Shown here: positions 11,324 through 47,242 of the stretch, in pieces | How the letters are laid out: each line of letters opens with the position of its first letter | How positions within the stretch are numbered: the stretch's first letter is position 1 | IMG/VR virus record: IMGVR_UViG_3300045119_000457 | Location: 5,194 to 69,193 of that record | Strand: one strand, 5' to 3' | Source of the DNA: a virus | Length of the DNA stretch: 64,000 nt | Notes under the pieces: model-generated | What the model was told of the DNA's origin: nothing | Database searches by the model: none | The model's input: only the letters and a program-made list of their open reading frames with translations | Made by a program: the position numbers and the translations under genes

Positions 11324-14300
11324 CTAGAGCCCCCTGCCGGCGATCGCCAGCGCCTTGGCCACCGCGTCGTCGGGGGCATTGAGAAGGACCTTGGTGTGGC
11401 GCGCGTGGCGGCGGCGGATCTTATCGGCCTGGCTCACCAACCGGGCGGCGCAAGCGGCGTGATCGCACTTGGCCTTGACCGCGCCACCGGCCGCGTGACC
11501 TTTGCGCTTTCTTTCATCGAGTTGCTGCTGACCAGGCTGCACGACATAGGGCGAGGCGAGCACCATGGGCCCGACACGCTGCCACCAGCGCTGACTGCCA
11601 GGGCCTTCGGCGGCGTACTGCAGCATGCGCATGCCGAGCTTGGGGTCGACCATGCCGGCGCGATAGGCATCCTGAACGCCGTTGATGCCGTGCGCCTTGA
11701 GCTTGCTGCCCAGGTAACCCAGCGTTCCCAATGTGATCGCCGTCCCTGCAGCACTGATCATGGCGCCCGGATGCTGCAGTCCGGCCAACATTCCACCGCC
11801 ATAGCCGGCCAGGCCTGCCAGGCCGCCGAATCCGCTGCTGAGGCCTATGCGCGCGCCCAGGGACGGCGGTGTGACGGGCTGCAGGCTCTCGCCGAGCTTG
11901 GTGTAGAACTGCGTCGGGCTGCCGGGCGAGCTCTGGTTCGAGAAGCGTGCGTGCTGCTGCTGACTGGCGGCGTCCTTTATCAGGCTCTCCAGCACCGGCA
12001 TGTGTTCGGCGCCGAATATCTTCGTGAGCGCCGGGCGATAGTCGTGGAGCTGACCGGCGAGCTTCTGGCCGAACCCCAGGGGATTGTTGCCGGCCGTCTC
12101 ATACATGTGATCCAGGGCAAGTTTCTTGAGCCCCTCGATCACGGCAGGATCGTGTCCAGCGTCATTAAGCAGAGCATTGAGCTTTGACGGACCGTTGATC
12201 TTGTCGCGCAGCAGCTTGCCCATGACGGCCTGCGCCGTCTGGACATCCTCGGCGCCGAGGAAGCTGCGCGCCAGCTCGCTATGGGTGTTGGCGAGGTTAT
12301 CGAACCGTTTGGAGAAGCCTGGCTCGACCTCGTCGATCGCCTTCAGCGCCGGGCCTTTTTTCTGCTTCCACTTATCGAGCGCCGCAGGGTCGAGATGGTT
12401 CTTGTCCATCACCTCGCGCAGCGAGGAGATCACCGCTTCCTTGATCGCCGGCAGAACATCGGGGCCGCCGGCCTCGAGCACCGCCCTGGTGACGTTGCCG
12501 CCGTCGGGACCGTCGGGAAACGCCTTCTTCGGCACATAGGCGTCCTTGACGTTCCACGCCTGGCCCCATTTGTCCTGCTTCAGGAGATCGCCCACCACAC
12601 CTTCGCGGAAGGTCGTGCCGAGCGCTTTCTGCGCAGCGTTGGCTTCCTTCAGGGCGGCGACACCGGCCAGGCTGAGCGGCACTTTCGGTCCCTGGGGCTC
12701 TGCCACGCCGTTCATGAATGCTTCGCGCATTTCGGTCAGCCGGGCTTCCATGGCCGCCTCGGCATTGGCTCCGCGTTCGCCCTCTTTGCCGAATTCCGAT
12801 TCCAGGCGGTTCTTCACGGCGCCATGCAGGTCGTCCCATACGGCTGAGCGCAGCGCCTGGGCGCGTTGGACCTGCTCGCGCATGCCTTCCGTCGTGCTGC
12901 TGCGATTGTTGGCGATGAAGTTGTTGAGGCTCTTCAGATAGACGCGTAGCTGACTGAACTGCACCTCGTTCGGCATCTCGCGGGCGAGGTCGATGTGCTT
13001 GGTCGTCTGCGCTTCCGGCTCGAAGCCCTCGACGTGCTTCATCAGCGCTTCGGCCCGCTCCTTCAGGCCGGGGATCTTTAGCCACTGACTGCCGAACTCC
13101 CGCTCCATGTTGTCATAGAGCTTGGTGCGCGCGGCCTCGGCTTTCGTCTGGGCCTCGGCCAGCGGGTTGCGGATGCCGCCGCCGATCTCATCAATGTCGC
13201 TGGTCTTCGGCAACGCCTTGTTGATGCGTTCGTCGAGCTCGGCGGCGCCCAGTCCCAACGTGTCCTTGACCTCCATGCCGGTAGCGTTGGGATCGGTCGT
13301 GCTGCGTCCTGCCTCCTGCTGCGCCGCCATACGCGCTGCCTGGCGTTCGCCGAGCTGCGCACCTGTTCCGGCTGGATCGGATTTCTCGGCGGCGCGCTCG
13401 CCCAGGGCCAAGCCACGCGACTGCGACAGCTCGCCGATCGTCGGTGTCGCCTCGTCGCGGTCCTTCAGCCAATCAGGCAAGTTGCCGAGCGCCTCACGCG
13501 CCCGGCTGAGGGCGTTGGGAACAGCGTTCGGTTCGTGCGGCTCGGCTTCCCTAATATTCTTGCCGTAACGCTCGGCGGCGGCGCGCGTACGGGCTTCATT
13601 GGTGATCGGTCCCGTGATCGCCCGCCGCGTCGCCAGGGCGCCCTCGATGCCAAGCGGCGTCACCAGACCCGGCACGGCGGTCCAGAAGGGATTGTCGGTG
13701 TGGCGTCCGACGAGCTCGCTGGCAACGCCGCCGGAGCCGGTGAGGGCGATCGGCTTGACGGCCTGTCCCAGCGTCACCGCGCGCTCGGCCAGGGTCGGCG
13801 CGCCCAGGGCGACGCGAGCGACACCTGTGCCGGCCTTGAACTTGCTAGCTACGCCAGGGCCGGCGGCCTGGATGAAGGCCGAGCCGGTCTTGCCCCAGTT
13901 GGTGACCGGCTTGTATTCACCCAGCGTCGGTTTGACGAACTTCTCGTAGAGATCCTGGGTGGTCGGTGCGTAGTGGCCCTCGGGCGCACCCGCTTTCATC
14001 TTGGCGTCCCAGTCCTCCTGGCTCATCCACCAAGGTTTCCCCTGGGCCTTCATTTTTTCGAAAGTGCCCTTGGCTTCTTTGTCGCTTTCGGCGGCCTGCT
14101 CGGCCTTGATTTGCTTGGTGGTCTTGTCGCTGAATACCGATTTGACGCCGGCTTTCATCGTGTCAATCAGGTCCAACGTGTCGCCGGCAAAACCCGGCGC
14201 GCCGAGCCCCATTTTGATGCCTGACGTGCCGACGTTCTTGATCTCGCCATAGGGATCGTCGGTGCCGACGTTACCCAGGACGCCGCCCTGGCCAGGTTCG

Positions 14301-14380
14301 CCGGTCCCTTCGACTTTGCCCCAGTCGCTGGCATCTGTAGATGCCGGCGGCCGTTTTACGGGTTCCCAATCACCGGCCAT
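11324..14380 (-). CDS. large internal virion / DNA ejection protein
   Basis: 1018-aa helical protein at the end of the virion operon, following the SLT-bearing protein. Confidence 0.7.
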   Translation of the reverse strand: MAGDWEPVKRPPASTDASDWGKVEGTGEPGQGGVLGNVGTDDPYGEIKNVGTSGIKMGLGAPGFAGDTLDLIDTMKAGVKSVFSDKTTKQIKAEQAAESDKEAKGTFEKMKAQGKPWWMSQEDWDAKMKAGAPEGHYAPTTQDLYEKFVKPTLGEYKPVTNWGKTGSAFIQAAGPGVASKFKAGTGVARVALGAPTLAERAVTLGQAVKPIALTGSGGVASELVGRHTDNPFWTAVPGLVTPLGIEGALATRRAITGPITNEARTRAAAERYGKNIREAEPHEPNAVPNALSRAREALGNLPDWLKDRDEATPTIGELSQSRGLALGERAAEKSDPAGTGAQLGERQAARMAAQQEAGRSTTDPNATGMEVKDTLGLGAAELDERINKALPKTSDIDEIGGGIRNPLAEAQTKAEAARTKLYDNMEREFGSQWLKIPGLKERAEALMKHVEGFEPEAQTTKHIDLAREMPNEVQFSQLRVYLKSLNNFIANNRSSTTEGMREQVQRAQALRSAVWDDLHGAVKNRLESEFGKEGERGANAEAAMEARLTEMREAFMNGVAEPQGPKVPLSLAGVAALKEANAAQKALGTTFREGVVGDLLKQDKWGQAWNVKDAYVPKKAFPDGPDGGNVTRAVLEAGGPDVLPAIKEAVISSLREVMDKNHLDPAALDKWKQKKGPALKAIDEVEPGFSKRFDNLANTHSELARSFLGAEDVQTAQAVMGKLLRDKINGPSKLNALLNDAGHDPAVIEGLKKLALDHMYETAGNNPLGFGQKLAGQLHDYRPALTKIFGAEHMPVLESLIKDAASQQQHARFSNQSSPGSPTQFYTKLGESLQPVTPPSLGARIGLSSGFGGLAGLAGYGGGMLAGLQHPGAMISAAGTAITLGTLGYLGSKLKAHGINGVQDAYRAGMVDPKLGMRMLQYAAEGPGSQRWWQRVGPMVLASPYVVQPGQQQLDERKRKGHAAGGAVKAKCDHAACAARLVSQADKIRRRHARHTKVLLNAPDDAVAKALAIAGRGL

Positions 14381-17300
14381 CAGGGCGCTCCCTTCGGCTT
14401 GCCTGTTTTGTCGTACTCCTTGCCCGTATCAGCATCCCTGAACTCGCCGGTCTTCTTGTTGCGCTCCAGGTTCTTGACGCCGCTCAGTGCCTCGGGGACG
14501 GTGCTGCCAGTCTCGGTCTGCTCGGTCTTGCCCTGATCGCCAACGCGGCCATAGGTCGGCGGATACATCTTGTTGTCGCGGTAGTACTGATTGCGCCGCG
14601 CCCAGTAGTCCTCGTTGAAGACGTCGCCCTTGTGCAGGTGATCATAGATGCCGGCGTCGAAGTTTGCCTTCGGTAGCAGAACGTGATCGATCATGAACGC
14701 CGCCGCGGCCGCCGACAATTGCGTGCCCGGCGTGTTCTTCAGCACCTGGTCGAAGATGCCCTGGGTTTCCTTGCTGCCGAATCCTGATGCGGCAATCGCC
14801 TGAGCCAGCGCGATCTTGCTCTTTTCGGCAACTTCACGATCAGAGCTGCTGATGCCCGTTATGTAGCGCGCCACGTCACCATTGCCGAGCAGTTGCTGGG
14901 ACAGTTGGGCAAGCGGACCGAGCAGCTCGCCGAGCGGGCCCATCGTGGTTTTCGGATTACCGTTCTCGTCGAACAGCGTGCTCTTGTATTTCGCCAGCTC
15001 CTGCTTTTGAATCTCGGCCGCCAGGGACTGCCCCTGAGCCCACTCGAGCGTCTTCTGGTTCTGTTGGTGCTGCCATTTCTTCTGGTCGAGATCGAAGGCG
15101 CCTGGCGTGGGCTTCACGACTTCCTTGCCATCCTCGGTGACCATCTTGGTGCCGCCACGCGCCGCCTCGCGCAGGCGCTGCGCCTCGGCAGCGGCCGCCG
15201 CCGCTCCTGGTGCATCGCCTAACCCACCGAGCGCCGTCGAGCGGCGGTCCCAGTGTTCGGGATTGTTACGGTCGAACTGTTCTCCCGTGGGCTGTGGCGT
15301 TGCGCCAGCCGCGGGTGGCGGTGGCGCCGGTTTCGCGGTTGGCCCCGGCAGCTTGCTGCTGGGCGGCGGCAGAGGCGCCATTTGCGCCTGCTGAATGTTG
15401 TCGTCATTGACGTCGGCATCGGTCGCCACGGCGGGCGTCGTCACGGCGTCGGGGTCGTCAGTGGCTGACAGGTCGGGAGACAAGCCACCAAAGCGGCGGC
15501 CGACACGACCACCCGCGCGCATGCCGGCGGCACGGCGCTGCGCCTCGAGGCGTGCCTGCAAGTCGTCGTATTGCTTCCGTGCGTCGGGCGGCAGGCCGTT
15601 GCTATCGGGGACGTTGTAACGCTGCAGGATGCTCTTCTGCTCATCCATGATACGGCCCACCGCGGCCTGCGGCGTCTGCTGCGTGCCGGTGGTTTCGGCC
15701 GACGCCGACTGTGTCTTGAACCGGAGCAGCGCCTCCGTGAGCTCGGGTGTGAGGCCCAGGGCCTTGCCATCCAATCCGACGGCCTGCCCGGCACGCGCCC
15801 GCTCGAGAGCCGCGTCGGCCTCACGCAAGCGAGCTGCGCGCTCGGTCGGGTCCTGGGTCGTCATGGCGTTCTGGTAGAGCGCGACGAAATTGTCGCGCGG
15901 TGCGACCTGACTGCTGAAAGTCTGAATCGCGGGTGCCTGGGTCTTGATGTAGTCGGCGTAGCTGCCGGGTGTCGTGTTGATGCTGATCCCGCCAGCTCCG
16001 ACCAGTTGAAGGTTCTTGTTCCGCAACTGGTTGTAGATTTTGTCGTAGGCCGACACGTCGGCGTGCGGATTGGCCGCCAGGACACCAGAGCGCTCACGCG
16101 CGATGTTGGTCATGGCCTCGGTGATCTTGCCGGCCTGAGCGATGTTCTGCGTCTGCTTCTGGATGTCGATGCCCTGCTGGCGCTGGCCCAGCGTGCCGTA
16201 CTGCGTGCCACCAGCCACCATGCCGGTGCCGAGCGAACCCAGGAAGGTGCGTGACGGGCTCGAGAACATGGCACCGAGGCCGGTCAGCAGCGGCACGCCC
16301 CAGCTCTCGTTGCGGTCGATCCAGTCCTTGGACTGGCCCCACAGGCTCTTGGACTCGGGGCTGGCGCCACCCAGGCCGCCAGCCGATGGCTGGACGTCGG
16401 CGGCTGTATCGGCCGGCGCGCCGGGGGCCTTGGTCGAGGCGTTACCGACACCACCGCCACCTTTGCCCGGCGTGCCCATGCGCTGCCCGGACACGACCCA
16501 CAGATGGTTTTTGGTTTCGTCCGGTACGTAGTCGGTCCAGCTACCGCCCTGCTTAGCCGCCTTGGCCGTGGCGTCCTTGACGCACTGCTCGCCGCAATTA
16601 TAGGCCGCCGCAGCCTTGTAAGGATCGTCGGGGAAGACCTGCTCGAGGTGCGTGTACAGGGCGTTGCTGAGCTTCTTGTTGTATGCCTCATCGGTCCTGG
16701 CTTTTTCGGGGCTCCACACCTCACCCGCGAGTTCTGCTGCCTGCGGCCCGCCGCTTGCCAATTGTCCCCAGCCAACCGCGCCAGTCTTTGACGTGATCAC
16801 ATTGCCGTTCGCATCGAACTGGCGCTGGCCGCTCTCCTGAGTGAAGTGGCGACCCCTGATGTTGATCGGATCGTCGAAAGGCTTGTCCGGATCAGTAGCC
16901 GGCTGTTGCCTTTGCTGCCCTGGTCCGGGCGGCTTGGGTGGCGGCGGCGGGGTCGCCGGGGTCGTATCCGGTCGCCAGGTGCCGCCCTGCATGACCAGGG
17001 GCTTGTCGCCGAACAGGGTCTTCGTCCCCTCGGCAACGGGGTAGGTCGGCAAGGAAGCTTCGATACCGCCACCCAGCCCTGGCTGGGCCGGTTGCGGCGC
17101 CTCCACGGCCGGTGGCGGCGGTGGCGGTGGCGGGGGCGGGGGCGCAGCCTGTGCCTGCACGACGTTCGGATCGGCCGCAGGTGCTGCGGCCGGCGGCGCC
17201 GGCATGCCCGGCCCGGCGACCATCTGATCCGCTGCGCCAACGCCTGGTGCGGGCTGTGCTCGCGCCAGCTCACCGCCTTTCAGAATCTCCCGTGCCGCCG

Positions 17301-20300
17301 GTGTGGGCTCGACCGGCGCAGGCTCGGTCCTGGCCGCGCCCAGAGCCTCTGCCTCACGCTCGCGCAGTTTCCTAGCTACCAGCTCGCGCTCGGCCTCGTC
17401 GTCCTCAGCGGTGACCTCGCCGGCATCGGCAAAGGCCAGGCGGCCGCCATAGGCGCGTTTACGTGTCGGCGGGATCGGCTTGATGAAATGGTCGTAGGCT
17501 CCATAAGCATCGTCTCGCTTATCGCGAATCCGACGCGCCCGATATTTGTCGGTCGCTCGGCCGACCATCTTGTGACCCTGACTGCGCGAGAAGATGCCGT
17601 AGTGGACGTTGTCGGCCGGCGCGATTGCCTCGGCGGCGGGGGCCAGGCCGGGCTCCGGCGGCTCGTTGTCGTTGACCTCGCCGCCTTCGGCGTAGGTCCG
17701 TCCGCCGCGCGCTGCAAGCATGCTGGCACCGGCGCCGCCGATCGTCGCGCCGAGGCCGGCGCCGACCAGGGTGCCGATGCCGGGCACGATCGAGCCAATC
17801 GCCGCACCGGCGCCCATGCCGGCCAGGGTGCCGCCCGCCTTGGCGGCGCTGTTGTCCTTCTTGCCGCTGCCGCTGCCGCCCTTCTCATCGGGCTTGGGCG
17901 CCTCGGCCAGCTTGGATGGATCGTCAGCGTTGTAGATACCCTCGGGCAGGATGCTGGTGCCATAGAAAGGAACGGCGCTCGAATCCTTGTCGACGCCCGA
18001 GTAGCCGACCCGCCCGCCCTTCCTGGCGAACATGGCGGCGTCCTCGAGCACTGGCGCCACGTCGGCCACCGCCGTGCCGCTCTCGGCCAGGTTGGCGGCG
18101 TCACCCAGGTTGCCGGCGTCGGCCAGCAGGTTGGCGCTGTCGGCCAGGCCGCTGAGGTCGGCCACGTTGGTGTCGGTGCTGAGGTCGCCCAGGGTCTTGG
18201 CACTGTCGGCGGTGTCAGCGACCTGGACAGGGGCTGCAGAGGCCACAGGAGCGGCTGGCAGGGTCGTGGCAGCCGGATTGGAAGATACACTGGTAGGTGG
18301 CGCCGTGGCCGCTGGACTGGGCGCCGGGGCCGTAGCAGGGGCTGTAGCGGGGGCTGTGGCAGGGTCGGTCTTAGGCGGCGCTTCCGCGCCCCATTTGCCG
18401 TGGTGGCCGAACCAGCCGCCGGTCGCCGGCTTGTAGTTATCCGAGGCCGGAACGGCCTTGACGTAGTTCGAATCGCCCGGCTTGCCGACCCCTGCTATGG
18501 CGGGCGTGCCCTTCTCCGGCTCTCCGACCAGGACATCCTTGCCCATGCCGTAGGCCTTCTCGAGGCTCTCGGCAGTCTTCACGGCGTCGTTGGCGGCGCC
18601 CAGGCCCTCCTGGGCGCCGGTCTTCGCCGGCGCTGCCGGAGCCTTGGGGAGGTCCGGCTTGATGAGCTGCGAGGCCTTGGCGGCCTGGAGCTGCGGGATG
18701 ATCGAGCCGGTGCCGGCGGCGGCCTTCTGGGCCCACGGCGCGTTGCCGTACATCGAGGCCTGGGCCGCCATGATGTTATCGAGGTCGCCGAAGCCGCCGG
18801 CGTAGCCGTCGGCCTTGCTGCCGCCCTTGGCGTAGCCGGTGCGCCCGCCGCTGGCGTAGGTACCGCCGTCGTCGCCGCTGACACCCTGACCCGACGTACC
18901 AGCCGCGGCGCTGCCACCGCTGCCGTCGGTCGCCGAGCCGCCGACGCCGCCCGTGCCAGCTTCGCCGCTGCCGCCGGGAGAATTGACCAGGAGAGACTGT
19001 GCGGCGGGTCCTGCCTCGGCGGCCGCGGCGGCCGCCACAGGGGCTGTCGGATCTGCCGGCCTGGGCGGTGCGCCAGCGCCCGCCGGAGGCGCTGTGGGAG
19101 CCGATATGCCGGCCTGTGAGGGCAGCCCCAGGGGCGCGCCCGGTCCCGAGCCGGGAGCGTTGGCGCCGAACATCGCCTTCTGCCGGGCGACGATGTCGCC
19201 CAGGCCGCCCGTCGGAGCGCCGCCGGGTAGGGTGGGCGCGATGCCTAAAACGCCGACACCGGGCGCCAGGGTGTTGGGCGGGATGTAGCCGAAGGGGTCA
19301 CCGCCCAACGCTCCGCCACCGGCCTTGCCCGGCCGATCGGCAGCGTCGGCGGTGGCGGCGGCGTAGTCGACCGCCTTCACGCCGCCGTGTTCACTGACGG
19401 CTTCGGGGTGCCTCTTCTCGACCTCCTGCGCCGACAGGCCGATCTGGGTGCCGGGCTGGCCGCGATAATTGAATCGATAGATCGCCTGGCCGTCGTGCGT
19501 GCGGCCGATCTGCTCCATGTTCTCTTTGACGCGATCGTCACTGAAAAACGGTTGCGGGGTGAAGGCACCGCTGTAAGAGCTTGATCCAGAAAGAGGACCC
19601 GTCCCCATGACGGCGTTGGTGTAGAATTGCGACGCCTGGTACGGGTAGCCTTGCTCCTGCAGCCACTGGTTATACATCGCCGAATCTTGGGCCTGCTGGG
19701 TCTGCTGCTGCATGGTGCCGAAGCCCATCTGGCCCTGCGCCGTCTGCAGGTTCTGCCCGAACGCCTGGCCGGCCAGCGCGGCCTGCTTGGCCGCCACGTC
19801 GCCATACATGCCGTAATTGGCCGCCCCCAGGCCCTGTTGGGCCTGTCCGGCGCCGACGCCCTGGCCGTACATCTGCTGGCCCATCTGGCCGGTGTACTGG
19901 GCCTGGCCCATGCCCTGCGTGTACTGCTGCGCCCCCAGGCCCTGCTGGGCCGTGCCCGCGCCCTGCAGCGCCTGGCCGTAGCCCAGGCCCTGCTGGTAAC
20001 CCTGCTGGCCGATGCCCAGGAGCTGGCCGGCGCCCTGCTGGATGGCCTGGCGGTTGGCCTGGGCGGCGCCGAGGCCGACGCCCTGCTGCTGCTGGGCAGC
20101 GCTTAGGGCCTGGCCATAGTTGGCGGTGTTGAGTTGGCCCAGCACCTGGGCTGAGGCCAGGTTCTGCTGGTTCACCATGTTGGCGTTGGCGACGCCTGAC
20201 CTGTCCCCGCCGAACGAGCCCTCCTTGATCATCTGGCCGCGCTGATCGTTGCGCTGCTGGGCCTGCTGCTGGCCGAGCTGGGCCATCGTCGCTTCAGTGA

Positions 20301-20856
20301 CCTGTTGCTGGTACGGATTGTAGAACTGGTTGAGGTTGAGCTGTGAGGGATCGACCGCGCCCATGCCGGCCACCGCGGCGCCAGTTGCAGCGCCCTGGTA
20401 GGGCTGAGCGCCGGCATAGGCGCCACCATACTGTCCGATGGCCTGATTGAATGCCTGGCCGGCCTGCTGATTGTAGGGCTGCGCCTGGTTGTAGGCCTGG
20501 GCGGCCTGGCCGAGGCCGGCGGCGCCCAGGGCCTGGCCCTGGATCTGGCCGGTGTTGATGCTGCCGCCGGCCTGGTCGAGCAGCGGCGCCGCCGCGTTGA
20601 CGCCCTGCGCCAGGCTCTGGTTGGGCATCTGCCAGCCGGCATTGGTGTAGTTCTGGCCGGCCATCATGGTGCCGTAGCCGGCTTGCTGGGTGTCGTTGAC
20701 GGGAGCTACGAATTCGCCGCCGTAGTTGCTCCACGGCGTCTGCGACACGTTCTCGGCGCGGTCGGTCGCCTTGTTGTAGCGTTGCAAGACTTCTTGCGGG
20801 ATCTGCACGCCGCTGTACTGCGTGGATGTCCCGCCGCCACCTTTGCCGCCGCCCAT
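14380..20856 (-). CDS. giant ejection protein with internal S74 chaperone domain and lytic transglycosylase domain
   Basis: Gln/Gly-rich N-terminus; FSDDRVKENM...IGLSAQEVE...AVDY (S74); QESG..GAVGWGQL..AAAYNCG..ETKN (SLT). Confidence 0.8.
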   Translation of the reverse strand: MGGGKGGGGTSTQYSGVQIPQEVLQRYNKATDRAENVSQTPWSNYGGEFVAPVNDTQQAGYGTMMAGQNYTNAGWQMPNQSLAQGVNAAAPLLDQAGGSINTGQIQGQALGAAGLGQAAQAYNQAQPYNQQAGQAFNQAIGQYGGAYAGAQPYQGAATGAAVAGMGAVDPSQLNLNQFYNPYQQQVTEATMAQLGQQQAQQRNDQRGQMIKEGSFGGDRSGVANANMVNQQNLASAQVLGQLNTANYGQALSAAQQQQGVGLGAAQANRQAIQQGAGQLLGIGQQGYQQGLGYGQALQGAGTAQQGLGAQQYTQGMGQAQYTGQMGQQMYGQGVGAGQAQQGLGAANYGMYGDVAAKQAALAGQAFGQNLQTAQGQMGFGTMQQQTQQAQDSAMYNQWLQEQGYPYQASQFYTNAVMGTGPLSGSSSYSGAFTPQPFFSDDRVKENMEQIGRTHDGQAIYRFNYRGQPGTQIGLSAQEVEKRHPEAVSEHGGVKAVDYAAATADAADRPGKAGGGALGGDPFGYIPPNTLAPGVGVLGIAPTLPGGAPTGGLGDIVARQKAMFGANAPGSGPGAPLGLPSQAGISAPTAPPAGAGAPPRPADPTAPVAAAAAAEAGPAAQSLLVNSPGGSGEAGTGGVGGSATDGSGGSAAAGTSGQGVSGDDGGTYASGGRTGYAKGGSKADGYAGGFGDLDNIMAAQASMYGNAPWAQKAAAGTGSIIPQLQAAKASQLIKPDLPKAPAAPAKTGAQEGLGAANDAVKTAESLEKAYGMGKDVLVGEPEKGTPAIAGVGKPGDSNYVKAVPASDNYKPATGGWFGHHGKWGAEAPPKTDPATAPATAPATAPAPSPAATAPPTSVSSNPAATTLPAAPVASAAPVQVADTADSAKTLGDLSTDTNVADLSGLADSANLLADAGNLGDAANLAESGTAVADVAPVLEDAAMFARKGGRVGYSGVDKDSSAVPFYGTSILPEGIYNADDPSKLAEAPKPDEKGGSGSGKKDNSAAKAGGTLAGMGAGAAIGSIVPGIGTLVGAGLGATIGGAGASMLAARGGRTYAEGGEVNDNEPPEPGLAPAAEAIAPADNVHYGIFSRSQGHKMVGRATDKYRARRIRDKRDDAYGAYDHFIKPIPPTRKRAYGGRLAFADAGEVTAEDDEAERELVARKLREREAEALGAARTEPAPVEPTPAAREILKGGELARAQPAPGVGAADQMVAGPGMPAPPAAAPAADPNVVQAQAAPPPPPPPPPPPAVEAPQPAQPGLGGGIEASLPTYPVAEGTKTLFGDKPLVMQGGTWRPDTTPATPPPPPKPPGPGQQRQQPATDPDKPFDDPINIRGRHFTQESGQRQFDANGNVITSKTGAVGWGQLASGGPQAAELAGEVWSPEKARTDEAYNKKLSNALYTHLEQVFPDDPYKAAAAYNCGEQCVKDATAKAAKQGGSWTDYVPDETKNHLWVVSGQRMGTPGKGGGGVGNASTKAPGAPADTAADVQPSAGGLGGASPESKSLWGQSKDWIDRNESWGVPLLTGLGAMFSSPSRTFLGSLGTGMVAGGTQYGTLGQRQQGIDIQKQTQNIAQAGKITEAMTNIARERSGVLAANPHADVSAYDKIYNQLRNKNLQLVGAGGISINTTPGSYADYIKTQAPAIQTFSSQVAPRDNFVALYQNAMTTQDPTERAARLREADAALERARAGQAVGLDGKALGLTPELTEALLRFKTQSASAETTGTQQTPQAAVGRIMDEQKSILQRYNVPDSNGLPPDARKQYDDLQARLEAQRRAAGMRAGGRVGRRFGGLSPDLSATDDPDAVTTPAVATDADVNDDNIQQAQMAPLPPPSSKLPGPTAKPAPPPPAAGATPQPTGEQFDRNNPEHWDRRSTALGGLGDAPGAAAAAAEAQRLREAARGGTKMVTEDGKEVVKPTPGAFDLDQKKWQHQQNQKTLEWAQGQSLAAEIQKQELAKYKSTLFDENGNPKTTMGPLGELLGPLAQLSQQLLGNGDVARYITGISSSDREVAEKSKIALAQAIAASGFGSKETQGIFDQVLKNTPGTQLSAAAAAFMIDHVLLPKANFDAGIYDHLHKGDVFNEDYWARRNQYYRDNKMYPPTYGRVGDQGKTEQTETGSTVPEALSGVKNLERNKKTGEFRDADTGKEYDKTGKPKGAP

Positions 20857-37956: not shown

Positions 37957-38871
37957 CTACGAGGTCGGGTAGCTTCCGAAAATCGCGCGCCAATTGTAGT
38001 AGGCGAACGAGTAGCGCTCGTATCCCTTGACCAGCAAATTATCTGTAATGAAATCCACTTGCATATCTGTTTCGAAGGATATGCGGGTCATGTAGCTCAG
38101 ACCATCGATGTTGGTCAGCATGAACCAGGGATAGGGCGAGGTCAAGAAATCAAGGACGAGAAACCCTTCAGGTAGACCACCTGCGGTTGAGAGGATCGCA
38201 TTGACATCGTTGTCTGCTGTACCAGGCCGCAGCTCGGTCTTGGTCAAGCGAATCGCCGTGGGCTCGTTGGCTGGTGCAATCACAAGCTTGCGGGCGCGCG
38301 CCAGGATCTTCAAACCGGCGATGTCGCGGAAGTTGGTGCGAATGGCGATCTGCGCGTTGAGCAGCGAGGCTTCGTTGAGGTCGATGTCGACCGCCGCCCG
38401 GTTCGACAGCACCTGGCCGTCGATCGGATGGTTGGCATCGATCAGCGGCCGACCGTCGCCGCCGATGTTGTTGTTGTAGACGTTGCCGGTATTCAAGATG
38501 TCGGCGGCGTAGACTTCCTTGGTCTGGTGGAAGCTCTCCGTCAGGCCAAGGTTAGAGGGAGCGAACTGGGTCTTGTAGAGGTTGTCGTCGATCGCCTTCC
38601 TGGTCATCGCGTAGCCCAGGCCGACCTCGATGTGTTCCTGATTGTAAACGTAGCGCTCGCCGGAGCCATTATCGAAGGCGGTCTGGCCACCTTCGGTCTT
38701 GAGCTGGGCGAGGCCGAGGTAACGCATCTCGGCAGTGCGCTCCAACGCCATCTTCGACTCATGCTTGGCGAAGACTTTGTCGTATTGGCTCGGGATCTGC
38801 TCGTACTTGCCTTCGACACCACGAAGACCGGGGAGCAACAGGTCCTTGATCTGGGAGAGATTGACGGCCAT
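37957..38871 (-). CDS. major capsid protein (HK97 fold, Mu gpT-like family)
   Basis: LLLPGL, KTEGG, GGDG..L...HP, PGTADNDVN, ERYSF motifs; 304 aa. Confidence 0.9.
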   Translation of the reverse strand: MAVNLSQIKDLLLPGLRGVEGKYEQIPSQYDKVFAKHESKMALERTAEMRYLGLAQLKTEGGQTAFDNGSGERYVYNQEHIEVGLGYAMTRKAIDDNLYKTQFAPSNLGLTESFHQTKEVYAADILNTGNVYNNNIGGDGRPLIDANHPIDGQVLSNRAAVDIDLNEASLLNAQIAIRTNFRDIAGLKILARARKLVIAPANEPTAIRLTKTELRPGTADNDVNAILSTAGGLPEGFLVLDFLTSPYPWFMLTNIDGLSYMTRISFETDMQVDFITDNLLVKGYERYSFAYYNWRAIFGSYPTS

Positions 38872-39646: not shown

Positions 39647-39653
39647 GAGCCCC

Positions 39654-40268: not shown

Positions 40269-40276
40269 GGCTGCTC

Positions 40277-41125
40277 CTAGTGCCGCGTGATGCGACCTTC
40301 CTTGACCAGGGCGTCCTGCGACGCGGCGTATTCTTCGTCGGTCTGGCCGGCGATGCGGGCGTATTCCTGTTCGGTCGAACTCAGCCGGCGGCTGTTCTTA
40401 CTGGGGCCACTGCGCACCGGCGCGGCCGGTGGCGCCGTGTCGTCGCTGCGCGCGCGCACGGTCCGCGCCGCCGTCGAGCGAGCGTCGCCGTCGCGGTCGA
40501 CGCCGTTGGTCGCACTCGGTTCGATCTCGAGGATGCGCTCAATGTCGGCGAAGTACTCGTCGCTGTCGGCGCGGTGCTTGGTCACCGAGGCGTTGTGGGC
40601 ACCGACCAGGGCACTGACCTTCTCCTCGCTGTGCGCCCATTCGGGATGACGACGCACCCAGGCCGCCGATTTCTCGCTGAGGCCCTTGGCGATGCGCTCG
40701 ACACGCTCGCTGAGGCTGAGGGAATTAAACGGCCGGACGTCGGCACCGGGCGGCAAGGGCGGATTGTCGATCTGCTGCTGCAGCGCGAACTTGCCCTGCT
40801 CGATACCGAGCAGGCGGGCACTGACGTCGCCCATCTCGGCGGTGGCCTCGGCCACCGTATCGTGATCGCCCTCGGCCGAAGCGGTGCGCAGGCGCGCCTT
40901 CAGGATATCACGCGCCGTCTTGAACTGTTCAATGTCGCTGTCGAACATCGCCATGCGACTGCGCTGCACTTCGTTGCCGCTGGCGACACTGTCCTGCACC
41001 GCGCGCTGGGCGCGCCGCTCGGCGTTGTGGGCGCGCTGCTCGGCGTTGCGCCGGGCCTCCGCCTCCTCCTCGATGCGGGCTTTCAGGCTGTCGATGCTCT
41101 CGTCGACTTTGAGATCGTCGGCCAT
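40277..41125 (-). CDS. putative capsid scaffolding protein
   Basis: Coiled-coil N-terminus, PPAAPV, C-terminal LSSTEQEYARIAG..EEYA. Confidence 0.75.
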   Translation of the reverse strand: MADDLKVDESIDSLKARIEEEAEARRNAEQRAHNAERRAQRAVQDSVASGNEVQRSRMAMFDSDIEQFKTARDILKARLRTASAEGDHDTVAEATAEMGDVSARLLGIEQGKFALQQQIDNPPLPPGADVRPFNSLSLSERVERIAKGLSEKSAAWVRRHPEWAHSEEKVSALVGAHNASVTKHRADSDEYFADIERILEIEPSATNGVDRDGDARSTAARTVRARSDDTAPPAAPVRSGPSKNSRRLSSTEQEYARIAGQTDEEYAASQDALVKEGRITRH

Positions 41126-41134
41126 GGCGCGCTC

Positions 41135-41524: not shown

Positions 41525-41526
41525 AG

Positions 41527-41724
41527 TTAACCTCGCTGAATGTCGCTCAGCGCCTGCGCCAGGAATTCCTTGGACAGACGTAAGCCGGCAATGATGCCGC
41601 AGTGGAATTTGTAGTCGCTGTGCGCCGTCAAATTGCCGGCCGACAGTGTTTGCAACGTATCTTCGATCGCCTTGTCGAGGCTGCGTTGCACCAGCCTCTC
41701 AATCCGTTCGTCGAACGACGCCAT
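41527..41724 (-). CDS. small conserved hypothetical protein
   Basis: LSAG..DYKFHCGIIAGL motif upstream of the GroES gene. Confidence 0.75.
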   Translation of the reverse strand: MASFDERIERLVQRSLDKAIEDTLQTLSAGNLTAHSDYKFHCGIIAGLRLSKEFLAQALSDIQRG

Positions 41725-42830
41725 TACCCCTTAAAGCCGGGGGTGTGCTGTCCTTCCTTGTGAACCTTGCGCAGCCGGCCAAGGCCCGAGCCGGCGCCAG
41801 CATCCTTGCTCATGTAGCCAGCTCGCCCACCGCGGGCGCGCGGCATGCCGGGAGGCATGCCTGGCGGCCCGCCAGGGGGCATTCCAGGCGGCGGGCCGGG
41901 CGGTGGACCCGGCGGGGGCCCGCCCATGCCAGGCGGCGGCATGCCTGGCGGCGGGGCGTTCTGCGGCGGCGGTGGGGGCCGTACCGGGGCCTGGGGCGGC
42001 GGCATGTTGGGATGCTGACCGCCACCTGGCGCGCCGATGATGATGTTGATCTTGGTGGCGCCCTTGGCGCGGCCGCCCTTGGCACGCTCGACCCGACCAC
42101 CGGCCGAATCCTCGGCCTCGCCGCCCTTCTTGAGCTTGGTCAGGGGCTCGCCCTTGTGATCGTGCTTCTCGTGCTTGTGGACGGCTTCCTTGGCCTCTTT
42201 TTTGTAGGGCCCGATCTTGACCGGCGCGTCCTTCGGCAGCTCGGCTTTCTTCAGCATGCCGCTGACCGCCTTGGCGACCTTGGGCGCCTCTTTCTCGACC
42301 TCGCCGCCCTTCTTGAACTTCGGGTTGCCGCTCTCGTCGGTTTCCTTGACGTTGGGGAATGTCTTGCGGACGTTGGCCAGCTTACCGGCCGGGGTGTTCT
42401 CGACCTTGGCACCGCCGATGTTGACGTACTTACCCTTCAGCGTATCGGTATCGGGCTTGTCGACCTTGCCACCCTTGGCCATCGGCCCGCCGCCGCACTT
42501 CTCCGGCCGGCCGCCCTTGTTGTAGCCACCCTTGTGGAAGTTGCCGAGCTTGGACTTGTTCTCGTCGGCCGTGTCGTGGATCGACAGCGCGCCTCCGTCA
42601 GCCTTGCGCGGCTCTTTGCCAGCGTTCACAGGGCCGCGATCGCCCTGGATGCGGCCGCCGTGCTTGTAAGCCTTCGCCCTGATCGGCCGGGCGCCGGTCT
42701 TCTTGTCGGCGTTGAGTGCGTCGGACGGGCTCCACGAGCTTGCGTCGACCTTGCCAGGGGTTTTCTGGTTGGCCAGGCGGTTGGCTTTTGCGCGCATATC
42801 GGAGCGCGCTTTCTTGGATTGCTCAGACAT
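41724..42830 (-). CDS. Lys/Pro-rich protein with many xxxGGxV repeats
   Basis: 368 aa; repeated KGG motifs, PPGMPP tract, GAGSGLGRL end. Confidence 0.75.
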   Translation of the reverse strand: MSEQSKKARSDMRAKANRLANQKTPGKVDASSWSPSDALNADKKTGARPIRAKAYKHGGRIQGDRGPVNAGKEPRKADGGALSIHDTADENKSKLGNFHKGGYNKGGRPEKCGGGPMAKGGKVDKPDTDTLKGKYVNIGGAKVENTPAGKLANVRKTFPNVKETDESGNPKFKKGGEVEKEAPKVAKAVSGMLKKAELPKDAPVKIGPYKKEAKEAVHKHEKHDHKGEPLTKLKKGGEAEDSAGGRVERAKGGRAKGATKINIIIGAPGGGQHPNMPPPQAPVRPPPPPQNAPPPGMPPPGMGGPPPGPPPGPPPGMPPGGPPGMPPGMPRARGGRAGYMSKDAGAGSGLGRLRKVHKEGQHTPGFKG

Positions 42831-42889
42831 CGAGGTTGGCCTCGCATACAAGGTCTTGTGGGCGCTTTACCATGCAAGCCTCCATTTGC

Positions 42890-45800
42890 CTAGGGATAGC
42901 GGCCGCCGACGTCGATCGTCTTGCGCAGCTTCTGATAAATGTCGTCGTGCAGGCGCTCGGAGATGCGACCGCCTGAGGCGTAGCCCTTCTGGCCGGCCAG
43001 GATGCTGGTGCGCATCCGCGGCGTGATGGTGAGCGCGTGCAGCTTGTGCGGCGGATGAGCGGCCAGGTAGTCGCGCACCATCGCGCCCTTCTGGTCGCGC
43101 CGAAAAGCATTGTGGATGTGGCCCTCGTCGCCGATGTCGGCGTACTTGGGATTGTTCCTGACCCAGTTCTTGAACGCCTGGTAGTTGTCGTGCGTCGCCC
43201 GCAGGAGCTCTGCCTGGTTGTCGATGGTGTGCGCATGCGGTTGCACCCTGGCCTCAGGGTCGTGCTGCTTGGCCAGCTTCTCGAGCGCCTTGGGCAGGAT
43301 GGTGTCGTAGAAGCCCTTCATGCCCTGGCCACCGATCTTGAGACCGTCGCCGCTCATCGTATGAACGCCGGAACTGGGCAGTCGATTATCAGGATGCATC
43401 AATCTCTCAGCAGCTTCCTTGCCAATGTGCGAGGCAAGGTTCTCCGGCGTTACGCCTTTGATCTGCTGCGGATCGGCCATGCGGGAATTTTCTTTAGGTG
43501 TCACTTCCAGAATCTTAAATTTGGGATCGTAACTTAGAGAGCTGACCTGCTGACTGAGATCGTAGCGCTTGGCCTGCTCCTCGCCCGGCGTCACCACCAG
43601 CCTGTCGTAGCCGCCCTTGGCGGCCTCGTGCAGCGCGCGCTTGAGGCCGAGGTCGGTCCACTTGGCGGTGCTGTCGACATAGGGCGCAGGTGGTAGTTTG
43701 TTTTCGGCTGTCTTATCGACAGTGTCGCGGAGCGCACGATATTTGTCCGCGGCAGCTTGCTCACCGACCTCGCCGAGCGAACGCACAACACCGCCATCGC
43801 CTAAATTATCGACGTGGTCGTGGACATTCTCGAGGGACATGTGCGTTCCGGCCAGCAGCTTCTGCTTCAAGAGCTCGCGCATGTCGCCCTGGTGGATCGC
43901 CAATGCCTTGACCGCCGCCTTGTGTTTCTCGGGATCATGGAAACCACCAGCCTCGCGCACGTCCTGGCCGTAGTCGCTCTGCAGCTCCTCGAGGTGCAGG
44001 ATCTTCTCGTGCTGCTTCATCGTTTTAAGTTCGAGATTGCCGTGCAGCTTTTCTGGCAGCGTTGTCAGATGACGCCGCGCCTCGTCTTCGCTGTCAAAAG
44101 CCCTGGTCGTGGCACCCGAAGTCTTGTTGCGCCAGACATACCTGGGCACCGGCGGTCCATCGCGGTCGCTCAGGCGCAGGTGAGCCAACACGTTGGGTTC
44201 GTCCCAGTGCGATGAACGATATTCCGGTGTCCTGAGTGGTTTATTTACGTTGTCGTATTCCTTCGACACTTCGGCGCGTTGTTCCGGTGATAGACTATTC
44301 CAGTCGCCATAGCCTTTTTCGCGCGCTACATCGTTCAGTGTTTTCTTGTGCGTCGGTGTGGACGGCAAGTGCAGCACGACCTCGCGGTAGTTCTTGCCAC
44401 CAGGCAGTTGGTAGTCGTGATACTTCGTCCCACCGGACGGGCCCGTGTCATCGGCATAGTCGTAGTTCTTGTCGCCGTATTCCATTTCCTCGATCTTGGG
44501 CAGGTGCTTCGTGAAGTGGTCGCGGACCTCGCGCTTGGTGACGACGTTCTTACCAGCGAAGGCCTGGTCGTAGCCCGACCACTTGAACTCGTCAGGCTTG
44601 ACGCCGCGCTTCAGCAGCATGGCCTTGAACTGCGCCGGCGAGCCCTTCATCTGCGGCTGCTTCCAGGTCTCCTCGGCGGCGTGAGAGTAGAGCCCGATCG
44701 GTGACAACGTGCGCCGGCCCTCGTCGATCGGCTTGATGTAGGAGGGCGTGTCGAGCGCGCTGCCGATCTGCTGCGGCGGCGGTGGCGGTGGCGGTGGCGG
44801 TGTTTGATCGTCACTCACCGGACCACCATCGGCGAAGCCGGCCTTGGTCGCCTCCTGACCCTGGCTGTTGATCTTGCCAGACGACGCCGCACCGGCAGCG
44901 AACACGCGGGCCGTCGGATCGGCGCTCGGATCATTGGCCACCTGCATGGCAAATTCATTGGCGTTGGCCGGGTTGCCTGGCGTGCCACTGCCCGAACCAC
45001 CGCCACCGAGCAAGCTGGAAAGGCCGGCGGCCTTCTTGACGCCCTTGCCAGGCTCACCAGGCGGACCCTCGCCGGCGCTGTACGGCGTGCTGCCCATGTC
45101 GACCGTGCCGCCGTTAGCTTTTTTTCGTCGCAGCGCCTGTTCCGCTCGCCACACGGCATCATAAAAGTCCTTATCGCGTTTGACCGGCCCGCCGTCGGCC
45201 TTGGTGGGCCGACGGCCCAGGCCACGCAGCAGGTCTACGCCTTCTTGTGAGCCGGATGCGCGGATGGCTTTTTCGAGTCGTGTGTCGCGCTTGAGCCCGT
45301 GCTCTTGGGCGAAGGCTTTGTCGACGGCTTCGACTTTCGGTGCGAGAACATCTGATACGAACCGGAGAACATCGGATCGTCCGGCGGCACTAAGCCGTGC
45401 TTTATAATCTTCGCCATTGGGGTTCGCTTTCCAGTCATTGCCGCGCAGCTCGCCATCGCTGGCGAACAGACGCTCGTGCGCCGTTATGCCACCACTATCG
45501 AACTTTTGCAAGGCCTCGTCGACCGCCTTATGGAAGACCTTGTGATCGGCCATTTTGCTGAAATTGACGATGCGCATCGTACCCGGACCGCTCGGGATCA
45601 GCGCCGTGTCGGGGATCTGATCGACCAAGGCGCCCAGATGACGGATCTGATCGCCCGACAGCGGCTTTTCGAACTGGTACTCGACCCCGTTCGCCTTGCT
45701 GACCTGCGGATTGTAGTAGGGCCGGTGGTAGCCAACCCCGTCCTGCTTCAGTAAGAGCCCGCGCGCATTGGCATAGTGGTCCAAAAGATCACGCGAGGCG

Positions 45801-47242
45801 GTATCGATATCAGGTTGCTGACCAGCAGCCTTAATACGGGTCGCCGCGACCTGCAGATGCGAGGCGGGATTAACGTCGCCCTGCCAATAACCCGGTGCTT
45901 CTACGGTGCCGGGTGACAACATGCCAAGATGCTTGGCCAAAAGGTCGTTGCCGTCCGAATCCTGCAACGCTTCGCTGATGCGCTTGTGATAATCGGCGCG
46001 TTTCTCCGGTGACAGGTTCGAAAGACCCGCCATATGGTCGACCGAACGGCTCGGTGTCGCTTCCCACGACACATGCGCCAGGTTCTGATCGAGAAAATCG
46101 GAAAAATCGCGGGCACTTTTCTTGATGTGATCAGCATCGAGCACTTTTTCGAGCGCGCGATCGCGCATCAGGCTCGAATAGGCGTCCTCCTGGCCCTGGT
46201 TGATCTGAAACTTAGGCTTGCCCTTGTCGCTCGGCACCATGGAGGCCATGCCCTTGTCGAGCGCCTCCTTCATGACGTCCTTCTTGACCGCCTCCTGGCG
46301 CGTTTTCATCGCCGTCCAGATCGCTGCCTGCACCTGGTGCGGCTTCCAGCCGAGCTCCTTGCCCAACTTGTGCGTCAGCTTCTCCATAAAATCGTATTTC
46401 GTGGCGTTCGACACGGCGTCGTCATGGAAGCCGAAGGCGCGCGCCATCCAGAGGTCCTGGGTCGAGCCTTGATCGATCGTCGGATCGATGTGGACCATCA
46501 AGTTGCGATAGAAATTGTTGGTCTTGCGACCTTCGAACGGGATCCCCTCGTTCATCAGCAGGTGAGCTTTGAGATCGCGGTCGGCGGTGGCGATATTCTC
46601 GTAGCCCGCCATGTTGTGACGGGCGAACAGGAAACGCTTGCCGCTGTCATCGAGCGGTACCTTGGTGATGGTCGAGCCGGCATTGCCACCGCCACCACCG
46701 GGATGCTGCTTGGCCAGTTCCTTGGCGTAATCAGACGCGCCCTTGATGGTGTCAAACGTCTTGTCGCGCTCGAGAATATCGCCGGCCCACATCGGTTGAC
46801 CTGACTTGGCGCGGTTATAGGCCTTGATGGCGTTCTGGGTGTTGACGTCGACCGCGGTCTGCGGCGAGTAGATCGCGATCAGCTGAGCGATCTTGTGGGC
46901 TTCGCCGCGATCGCCCTGGACGTAATCAAGAATCCGCTTGCTCGACTTCTCGTACCACATGCGACCCGGCTCGCCCTCCTGCGCCAGGCCCTTGAGGTCG
47001 GCATGCAGACGCTTGACGGCGGTGCCCGGTGCCGGCTGCTGATAGCGATCGACCATGCGGCCGATCTGGGTCTGCCGGGCCTTGGCCAGCAGGCGGCCCA
47101 GAAAGGCGTGGCTGGCCGTCGGATCAGCATCAGGTGGCGGCGGGGCGGCCGGCGTCGCGGGCGGTGCTGCACTGGCAGCACCCAAACCAGGTGCCGGTGG
47201 CACTTCGTTTGGTTGCGGGTCGGGCAGCTCGTCAGGGGTCAT
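42890..47242 (-). CDS. large multidomain (polyvalent-type) protein
   Basis: 1450 aa; N-terminal WY..SPQ..KTNNF..DLWM..QAAIW domain and C-terminal PGGKNYRE..SHW..EELQSD domain. Confidence 0.8.
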   Translation of the reverse strand: MTPDELPDPQPNEVPPAPGLGAASAAPPATPAAPPPPDADPTASHAFLGRLLAKARQTQIGRMVDRYQQPAPGTAVKRLHADLKGLAQEGEPGRMWYEKSSKRILDYVQGDRGEAHKIAQLIAIYSPQTAVDVNTQNAIKAYNRAKSGQPMWAGDILERDKTFDTIKGASDYAKELAKQHPGGGGGNAGSTITKVPLDDSGKRFLFARHNMAGYENIATADRDLKAHLLMNEGIPFEGRKTNNFYRNLMVHIDPTIDQGSTQDLWMARAFGFHDDAVSNATKYDFMEKLTHKLGKELGWKPHQVQAAIWTAMKTRQEAVKKDVMKEALDKGMASMVPSDKGKPKFQINQGQEDAYSSLMRDRALEKVLDADHIKKSARDFSDFLDQNLAHVSWEATPSRSVDHMAGLSNLSPEKRADYHKRISEALQDSDGNDLLAKHLGMLSPGTVEAPGYWQGDVNPASHLQVAATRIKAAGQQPDIDTASRDLLDHYANARGLLLKQDGVGYHRPYYNPQVSKANGVEYQFEKPLSGDQIRHLGALVDQIPDTALIPSGPGTMRIVNFSKMADHKVFHKAVDEALQKFDSGGITAHERLFASDGELRGNDWKANPNGEDYKARLSAAGRSDVLRFVSDVLAPKVEAVDKAFAQEHGLKRDTRLEKAIRASGSQEGVDLLRGLGRRPTKADGGPVKRDKDFYDAVWRAEQALRRKKANGGTVDMGSTPYSAGEGPPGEPGKGVKKAAGLSSLLGGGGSGSGTPGNPANANEFAMQVANDPSADPTARVFAAGAASSGKINSQGQEATKAGFADGGPVSDDQTPPPPPPPPPQQIGSALDTPSYIKPIDEGRRTLSPIGLYSHAAEETWKQPQMKGSPAQFKAMLLKRGVKPDEFKWSGYDQAFAGKNVVTKREVRDHFTKHLPKIEEMEYGDKNYDYADDTGPSGGTKYHDYQLPGGKNYREVVLHLPSTPTHKKTLNDVAREKGYGDWNSLSPEQRAEVSKEYDNVNKPLRTPEYRSSHWDEPNVLAHLRLSDRDGPPVPRYVWRNKTSGATTRAFDSEDEARRHLTTLPEKLHGNLELKTMKQHEKILHLEELQSDYGQDVREAGGFHDPEKHKAAVKALAIHQGDMRELLKQKLLAGTHMSLENVHDHVDNLGDGGVVRSLGEVGEQAAADKYRALRDTVDKTAENKLPPAPYVDSTAKWTDLGLKRALHEAAKGGYDRLVVTPGEEQAKRYDLSQQVSSLSYDPKFKILEVTPKENSRMADPQQIKGVTPENLASHIGKEAAERLMHPDNRLPSSGVHTMSGDGLKIGGQGMKGFYDTILPKALEKLAKQHDPEARVQPHAHTIDNQAELLRATHDNYQAFKNWVRNNPKYADIGDEGHIHNAFRRDQKGAMVRDYLAAHPPHKLHALTITPRMRTSILAGQKGYASGGRISERLHDDIYQKLRKTIDVGGRYP

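Follow-up and report, generated by a model that had tools for sequence, protein, structure and literature searches.

A 64,000-nucleotide stretch of an uncultured virus genome (bases 5194-69193 of IMG/VR record IMGVR_UViG_3300045119_000457; hereafter the window) encodes a short peptide motif, centred on two adjacent glycines (G-G), that recurs in otherwise dissimilar proteins. Its behaviour points to a short linear peptide signal under protein-level selection: the codons for Gly, Ala, and the flanking residues differ between copies, which rules out a DNA-level repeat and therefore places selection on the protein. We read the motif, tentatively and with slightly less than even confidence, as a docking element that stays uncut and serves co-packaging of proteins. 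The open reading frames (ORFs) of the window on which the argument rests encode the following products (length in amino acids, aa; basis of assignment in brackets).

42890..47242, minus strand: 1450-aa protein of polyvalent-cargo type, directly after the portal gene (motif copies, DUF7178, alignments)
41724..42830, minus strand: 368-aa basic protein, predicted to be disordered and here called the hub, 375 aa from an upstream TTG at 42851 (motif copies, alignment, AlphaFold2 [AF2])
36540..36842, minus strand: 100-aa very basic protein with 5 strict motif copies in its first 45 residues (motif count)
14380..20856, minus strand: 2158-aa ejection-type protein (phrog_4287, phrog_6121, SLT, Peptidase_S74)
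11324..14380, minus strand: 1018-aa protein with one loose copy, HAAGGAV, at aa 962 (motif copy, tail class)

Enrichment and shape of the motif

Motif counts were made on 57 rough gene calls in the window (19,226 residues). All 23 heptamers listed in the first-pass annotation were present in the ORFs it had named (7 in the 368/375-aa ORF, 4 in the 100-aa ORF, 4 in the 1450-aa ORF, 7 in the 2158-aa ORF, and 1 in the 1018-aa ORF); 16 of them fit the pattern that it had given, [FYKRM]-[AK]-x-G-G-x-[VIAL] (the strict pattern), and the other 7 do not. This pattern occurs 19 times, so the earlier figure of roughly 30 copies needs a looser reading, under which 30 matches were found against 5.1-5.2 expected. 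Enrichment over composition-matched sequence was borne out: the 19 strict copies compare with a mean of 1.62 after shuffling, and 19 was reached by 0 of 200 shuffles of either kind, whether permuted over whole proteins (standard deviation 1.26, maximum 6) or within 30-residue blocks (standard deviation 1.19, maximum 5). Four ORFs hold 18 of the 19 (3 in the 2158-aa, 5 in the 100-aa, 6 in the 375-aa, and 4 in the 1450-aa ORF), and the remaining copy is in a glycine-rich fibre-like ORF (29836-30954). As had been claimed from inspection, the capsid, portal, terminase, and replication ORFs of the window have no match to the strict pattern. The head genes in question, with the scaffold-like gene discussed below, are these.

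49921-51600, minus strand: large terminase (family match)
47239..49629, minus strand: portal protein, SU10-like, without the motif; start of the cargo gene block (family matches)
40277..41125, minus strand: 282-aa helical protein with an acidic N-terminus, without the motif (sequence, tails of 46 relatives)
37957..38871, minus strand: major capsid protein, 304 aa, no delta domain, without the motif (family match)

The motif is conserved in homologues. Eighty IMG/VR loci were fetched with a 31-row alignment of the hub family, and counts are quoted for 81 related loci, using distinct sequences and 100 shuffles for each class. "Cargo" here denotes the large ORFs that follow the portal gene.

Hub family: 60 proteins, 340 copies observed versus 9.0 expected
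ORFs between portal and hub: 66 proteins, 96 observed versus 3.4 expected
ORFs upstream of the hub, portal off the contig: 23 proteins, 24 observed versus 0.6 expected
1450-like ORFs: 18 proteins, 41 observed versus 1.5 expected
All other ORFs: 588 proteins, 43 observed versus 7.0 expected
Terminase homologues: 36 proteins, 3 observed versus 0.6 expected
Portal homologues: 56 proteins (38,725 residues), 0 observed versus 1.4 expected
Capsid homologues: 30 proteins, 0 observed versus 0.5 expected
282-aa family: 47 proteins, 0 observed versus 0.2 expected

The count was also 0 in the 204-, 209-, GroES-like, 65-, 167-, 222-, and 230-aa families of these loci, and the excess among other ORFs consists largely of missed cargo ORFs and of small basic ORFs (80-160 aa, 2-5 copies) several kb downstream of the hub. 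At least one copy was present in 62 of 74 cargo-position ORFs of 300 aa or longer. The nearest deposited phage, MW202675 (portal 58% identical), has the motif at aligned places in three large post-portal ORFs and in a 383-aa protein homologous to the 368-aa one. A tblastn search of phages with the hub relative P0005 returned only MW202675 and one short match, and no DNA nearly identical to the window was found in the phage collection. In Caulobacter phage GB2A, whose head module is related but which, in the stretch read, has no large post-portal ORFs or hub-like gene, 0 copies were counted (0.4 expected). Thus, of the suggestion that the motif is a sorting or cleavage signal, the part that stands is a conserved, class-specific peptide signal, confined to proteins that are likely head-carried by gene position and domains.

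The motif has two flavours. In the large enzyme-bearing proteins the cargo consensus is about R-x-G-[Y/F/K]-A-x-G-G-x-V-[D/E], and in the two disordered basic protein families it is R-x-x-[R/K]-K-x-G-G-[R/K]-[A/V/T]. When only the N-terminal side was fixed ([FYKRMH][AK]xGG, n = 206, cargo), position +2, counted outward from the G-G, was V in 52% and I in 9% (61% together, versus 9% background), and +3 was D/E in 35%. When only the C-terminal side was fixed (GGx[VI], n = 209), position -2 was A in 50% or K in 19%, -3 was Y/F/K/R in 73% (Y/F in 40%), -4 was G in 22%, and -6 was R in 21%. Each half of the motif predicts the other. Hub copies carry K at -2 in 78% and R/K at +1 in 70%, and cargo copies are neutral to acidic on their C-terminal side (net charge at +3 of -0.23). 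The constraints around the G-G are roughly mirror-like, and in our view a turn or hairpin would fit them better than an extended protease substrate. Most cargo copies are internal. Of 161, 44 fall in the last tenth of the protein and 43 are no more than 40 residues away from the C-terminus; in three cargo ORFs the motif is followed by at most 3 residues. Only 7 of 187 copies start within 30 residues of the N-terminus.

These features bear on the simplest alternative, namely that G-, A-, and K-rich low-complexity stretches of a genome with 64% G+C yield such heptamers by chance. The virus record (69,193 bases, rated 100% complete) is indeed G+C-rich (60-71% along the window), the stretches that bear the motif abound in G, A, K, and P, and 6 of the 30 loose-pattern matches fall in glycine-rich fibre-like ORFs. 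The 30-residue-block shuffles, however, preserve local composition and still gave about 1.6 copies against 19, the two-sided footprint would not be expected, and the invariant columns of the 31-row hub alignment are mostly the motif glycines and their neighbours. A fibre ORF of 1188 aa with 35 GG pairs has no strict copy, whereas the AT-rich pelagiphage HTVC027P has 4 copies against 0.5 expected, a number reached by 0 of 300 shuffles. Chance is thus highly improbable, and we rejected it on the shuffles, the footprint, the invariant G-G islands, and HTVC027P.

Tagged proteins and their surroundings

The minus-strand virion genes run in the order terminase, portal, 1450-aa, 368/375-aa, a 65-aa ORF, GroES-like 129-aa, 282-aa, 204-/209-aa, and capsid; the capsid gene is followed by 364-, 100-, and 222-aa ORFs, tail and SU10-like adaptor genes, fibre-like ORFs, and the 269-aa, GNAT acetyltransferase, 2158-aa, and 1018-aa genes. 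In the window, and in those relatives in which the portal gene is seen, a cargo gene directly follows it. Copies in the tagged proteins lie in linkers, at module borders, or near C-termini, in agreement with the first-pass annotation. In the 1450-aa protein, a Gly/Pro-rich linker holds three copies (aa 681, 708, and 803), and a fourth, at aa 1421, lies 30 residues from the C-terminus. The only domain recognised in this protein was DUF7178 (Pfam, residues 215-315); residues 850-1410 matched only unnamed clusters in the ESM Atlas, below 0.9, and a single-protein search found no relatives of the protein in viral contigs. It aligns at 25-35% identity, over 139-549 residues per segment, with giant ART-containing proteins that other elements encode (contigs L089-L091), and 20 ORF calls in the related loci were classed as 1450-like. 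PDB sequence searches with the 1450-aa protein, the 204-aa family, and the capsid family returned nothing useful.

Among the relatives, all 5 large portal-to-hub ORFs scanned had Pfam matches (LPD23, the cell-wall hydrolase Hydrolase_2, ART-PolyVal, PcfJ, InPase, and DUF7178). Four of the 5 combine distinct families, and the fifth, in L026, has ART-PolyVal only, in several copies. Because of these multiple enzyme domains, we class the post-portal ORFs of the relatives with the polyvalent proteins described by Iyer, Burroughs, Anand, de Souza, and Aravind (2017; PMC5512222). A scan of a genome collection for ART-PolyVal gave 7 loci, a small sample and all of them contigs of metagenome-assembled genomes (MAGs); three were the same kind of phage, three encoded giant proteins without the motif, and one (L092) encoded a distant giant protein.

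In the 2158-aa protein, the N-terminal ∼500 residues match a "DNA ejection protein" family, an SLT transglycosylase domain occupies aa 1354-1436, and the copies at aa 511, 667, 675, 944, 1055, 1134, and 1779 are all in low-complexity linkers. A Peptidase_S74-like element, "FFSDDRVKENMEQIG...", closes its ejection part (19396-19542, minus strand; aa 439-487; Pfam E = 4.6e-4, just below cutoff). S74 elements cut themselves off in tail fibres, so the 2158-aa protein may be split at aa 439-487; the first G-G copy then lies at aa 511. Directly upstream of its gene is the GNAT acetyltransferase gene (20863-21390, minus strand), a pair that is kept in the Caulobacteraceae MAG contig L088, and the 2158-aa protein itself begins with MGGGKGGGG (20830-20856). 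The neighbouring 269-aa protein (21401-22210, minus strand) matches phrog_2423 over its first 47 residues, and the sequence "PIIAAGGEHVLTPDEV" near its C-terminus resembles "PAGIVHRGEFVFTKEAT" of lambda gpH. Its homologue in L088 has an ART-PolyVal domain and five G-G-G copies and stands beside the acetyltransferase and 2158-aa homologues.

The 368-aa hub has 6 copies of the strict and 7 of the loose pattern; a stretch rich in Pro is also present, and the C-terminus bears the conserved element "AGAGSGLGRLRK". Its family appears large and unannotated, with at least 1441 of 8000 scored candidates related to it at E ≤ 1e-3 and a Pfam match for only 1 of 120 among the matches listed, and it is predicted to be mostly disordered: the AF2 model of the hub has a mean predicted local distance difference test score (pLDDT) of 52 and a confident helix only at residues 10-28. 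The hub has 71 K+R against 35 D+E, and the 100-aa protein has 19 K+R against 1 D+E. Small basic ORFs with 2-5 copies stand at the place equivalent to that of the 100-aa gene in L009, L027, L030, L055, and L063. Some hub family members have a duplicated C-terminal unit, R-K-x-G-G-R-T ... D-A-G-A-G-S-G-x-G-R-L-E-K (alignment columns about 830-900), and long hubs (520-945 aa; L024, L035, L036, and L060) hold extra repeats, with insert modules that include H-x-D-E-x-x-D-K-A-L-I-K-K-M-V-K-P and W-I-x-G-A-I-K-H-P-G-A-L-H-K.

The last copy in a cargo protein is typically followed by one of three short tails (L004-L083): "..HKALEIIHHLL", "..VDRALMLVSRKA..RGRP", or "HP...IPGVHI...G.PVF.G". A pattern for the first two, applied to the last 45 residues, matched 35 of 59 portal-to-hub ORFs and 12 of 18 1450-like ORFs, against 0 of 60 hubs, 1 of 56 portals, and none of the terminase, 204-, 209-, or 282-aa families or capsid proteins. 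An amphipathic helix was found within 25 residues after 33 of 50 C-terminal copies, but after only 8 of 137 internal ones; for randomly chosen places the figure was 27 of 1900. The 1018-aa protein ends in the helix "DDAVAKALAIAGRGL" (nucleotides 11327-11371), like the cargo ends of relatives, and the 1450-aa protein ends in a motif copy and a divergent tail. Two tail classes can sit on different proteins of one phage (e.g., L013 and L066).

The head genes themselves differ in conservation. Median identity to homologues in the related loci is 77% for the capsid protein, 54% for the portal, 50% for the terminase, and 31-45% for other head genes; the capsid protein has 6258 relatives at E ≤ 1e-5. 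Such constraint appears unusually strong for a capsid protein. The 282-aa protein is a probable scaffolding protein by position and composition, and its family has a conserved C-terminal element, "...RLT..E.E.A...GMT..EYA.NK..L.KEG" (46 relatives). Beside it lies the gene for the GroES-like 129-aa protein (41135-41524, minus strand; Pfam Cpn10, E = 0.002, below cutoff), an arrangement kept in 57 ORF calls of the related loci; the counterparts in MW202675 and HTVC027P are annotated as co-chaperonins. A conserved GroES-like gene adjoining a scaffold-like gene suggests that head assembly depends on host GroEL. We considered whether the motif might mimic the GroES mobile loop, in which a hydrophobic triplet binds GroEL, and dropped the idea: the triplet is missing after the G-G, and the GroES-like protein of the phage has a different loop. 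In several relatives (e.g., L008 and L015), homing endonuclease genes are interspersed with the head genes or follow them closely, with HNH_3 in 4 and Endonuclease_7 in 3 of 46 ORFs scanned.

Proposed docking and its alternatives

In the mechanism that we propose, the G-G turn, with matched residues on both sides, would be read by one common partner during head assembly, so that each cargo module is tied into the prohead. The 368-aa disordered protein, with 6 to 10 copies, could act as a multivalent hub, and the helix after the last copy could provide a second anchor. The capsid protein, far better conserved than its neighbours, is for that reason our first-guess candidate for the partner; high conservation is expected of a surface read by many partners. 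Docking is favoured by the two-sided footprint, the predicted disorder of the hub, the tail helices, the copies at protein ends, the conserved capsid protein, and the lack of a recognised protease. Cutting makes little sense for copies within 3 residues of a C-terminus or with Pro directly after the G-G, as in 4 of 21 window copies. A more specific version of docking is possible but more doubtful, namely a modular address code in which a G-G turn at every joint and one of three tails would dock polyvalent and ejection proteins through the hub, in the manner of CsoS2 and without proteolysis, in abundant aquatic short-tailed phages. Such a code may have an echo in the lambda tape measure protein.

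Several points weigh against docking as proposed. No binding partner was found. Complex prediction for one pair, the capsid protein (94-row alignment) and hub residues 44-92, scored 0.00 in both runs, which were made without controls and speak neither for binding nor against it. The tagged proteins are probably carried inside the head, a conclusion drawn only from their gene order and domains. Both patterns, for the motif and for the helix, were written after looking at the data, and since the motif pattern came from the window proteins, the real test lies in other sets, namely MW202675, the IMG/VR loci, and HTVC027P; the related loci were gathered through the hub protein and form one clade with shared ancestry, so they are not independent, and their ORFs were called crudely (longest ORFs, greedy) and sorted by BLAST to the window proteins. 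One docking tag per protein would suffice, yet the motif brackets single modules, as a polyprotein cut site would look. It follows the conserved ART-PolyVal end (QIKSAxGNxGxFDPxxPDI-[T/N/H]-KAxGGxV) in 11 of 11 distinct copies and precedes the "GITAYHGSPHDF" (GITAYHG) module in 10 of 13 contexts, with a few acidic residues between; in 2 more contexts this module is a separate ORF that starts where the motif would end, and 1 context lacks the motif. In addition, similar copies occur twice in gpH, the lambda tape measure protein (FATGGFT at 733 and YATGGYV at 778), beside its glycine-rich cut region, and none was found in the other 9 of 10 lambda structural proteins scanned.

The same placement supports processing, in which a cut at or next to the G-G would free cargo modules, remove C-terminal targeting tails after loading, and chop the basic disordered proteins into peptides. 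We consider this rather unlikely, even though the motif lies exactly at module borders and the arrangement of cargo body, motif, and short tail, in three classes, resembles a removable targeting peptide. The giant proteins of L089-L091 (1297-3789 aa, on MAG contigs and without the G-G motif) have DIRFS, DIRRS, or DISRS right after the ART-PolyVal domain, which may be another, more widespread polyvalent joint motif; with another conserved joint at the same place, the joint itself seems functional. Polyvalent proteins have been proposed, in the text of Iyer et al. (2017; PMC5512222) that was searched, to be processed into units, and lambda gpH is cut beside its similar motifs.

The searches for an enzyme, however, gave little. 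As the first-pass annotation had noted, no prohead protease was recognised: head-maturation protease families were absent from 63 ORFs of the whole 69-kb genome searched against Pfam and from 18 ORFs searched against PHROGs, and the only peptidase matches in the Pfam scan were a cell-wall M15 peptidase and the sub-threshold self-cleaving S74 element. In relatives, a Pfam scan of 46 unassigned ORFs located past the portal gene or in the neighbourhood of the hub gene recognised homing endonucleases and cargo domains and no peptidase. No cysteine protease of the Ulp1/adenain clan was found in the Pfam or PHROG scans, the 1450-, 2158-, and 1018-aa proteins lack HExxH and showed no zincin-type site, and the large post-portal ORFs of relatives had no peptidase match that would indicate the zincin-like metallopeptidase domain of polyvalent proteins. 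The conserved 204-aa protein was considered as a hidden protease and set aside; its fold is confidently predicted (pLDDT 78.8), and no solved structure matched it at E ≤ 0.001. A protease of an unrecognised kind or one supplied by the host is possible. Judging from MAG titles, however, the hosts seem to include SAR11 and various other aquatic bacteria, and only a universal protease could then be shared by all of them. Also against processing, a capsid protein without a delta domain and a separate scaffold-like gene form an arrangement that is protease-free in P22/T7-type assembly, and positions +2 and +3 are constrained in a way that known G-G-directed cysteine proteases do not need.

A physical role, which we regard as improbable, would make the motif a flexible turn-forming linker for unfolding and threading through the portal and tail, or a set of Y/F and K/R "stickers" that condense proteins or DNA in the head. 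The strong basicity of the hub and the 100-aa protein and the predicted disorder of the hub are consistent with such a role, and basic copies in the hub opposite neutral-to-acidic copies in the cargo would allow charge pairing. Moreover, the lambda tape measure protein with its similar copies is also ejected, and ejected proteins of crassviruses are thought to unfold partly on exit, according to the portion of PMC10172136 consulted. A mere hinge, on the other hand, would work without Y/F/K, A, and V being conserved at set distances, and the cargo copies are not basic and thus would not bind DNA by themselves. The broader idea of a universal motif of ejected proteins was rejected, because T7 gp8 to gp19 have no copy; with none in the ejected gp14-16, the motif is not a general need of ejection.

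Significance and relation to known systems

Shared address peptides have precedents in T4 and the encapsulins, and the processing of polyvalent proteins was put forward by Iyer et al.; the motif, the hub family, and the tail peptides appear to be new, in that no description of them was found in the portions of the literature searched. The motif is a concrete, sequence-defined candidate packaging signal in hundreds of uncultured phages, accompanied by a candidate hub and tail peptides. To our knowledge, the selection of head-carried, injected proteins in tailed phages is understood in detail only for T4; with such a signal, the injected protein set of uncultured phages could be predicted from sequence alone. 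If the address code is true, a tag of 7-30 residues could load any protein into such capsids. If the motif is instead a cut site, it points to an unrecognised protease and may bear on the decades-old question of how lambda gpH is cut.

In T4, the internal proteins IPI-III and Alt carry a capsid-targeting sequence, a single N-terminal leader that is cut at L-x-E by the prohead protease gp21. The present case is similar in that one short shared peptide would address unrelated proteins to the head interior, and in that small basic proteins and an ADP-ribosyltransferase are among those tagged. It differs in that the motif is internal or C-terminal, multi-copy, and centred on G-G, with no protease recognised. 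The cargo-loading peptide of encapsulins is short, often C-terminal, and Gly-containing, and it docks uncut on the inner face of an HK97-fold shell; the conserved C-terminal "AGAGSGLGRLEK" unit of the hub looks similar. The encapsulin peptide, however, has another consensus and usually occurs once, at the very C-terminus, whereas here many copies are present at joints and in a disordered hub. The adenovirus protease, a packaged cysteine protease, cuts core protein precursors at (M/I/L)-x-G-G|x sites without a prime-side requirement. There, as here, G-G-centred sites recur in several virion-internal proteins, some of them very basic, and cutting would release short basic peptides; by contrast, the fourth residue before the cut would here be A (50-80%) or K, the prime side is constrained, and no such protease was recognised.

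Polyvalent proteins likewise combine several enzyme domains in one chain, with genes beside virion genes, as in the relatives studied here. In the part of the paper by Iyer et al. (PMC5512222) that was searched, they are proposed to be processed by a zincin-like peptidase domain, present in about 36% of members, and no joint motif is mentioned there; no zincin-like peptidase domain was found in the present proteins. Lambda gpH is cleaved to gpH* in a glycine-rich region, and the sections of PMC12617516 consulted call both the site and the enzyme unknown. The copies in this ejected protein lie, by the same partial account, in the unresolved N-terminal part of the C-terminal fragment, next to the glycine-rich cut region. 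Unlike the proteins described here, gpH belongs to a siphovirus tail rather than a head, has two copies only, and is accompanied by no hub protein.

CsoS2 of alpha-carboxysomes, which is large, disordered, and basic, links cargo to the shell during assembly through its many copies of short motifs. Although it belongs to a bacterial microcompartment and is unrelated in sequence and motifs, it would be the nearest functional analogue to the role proposed for the 368-aa hub.

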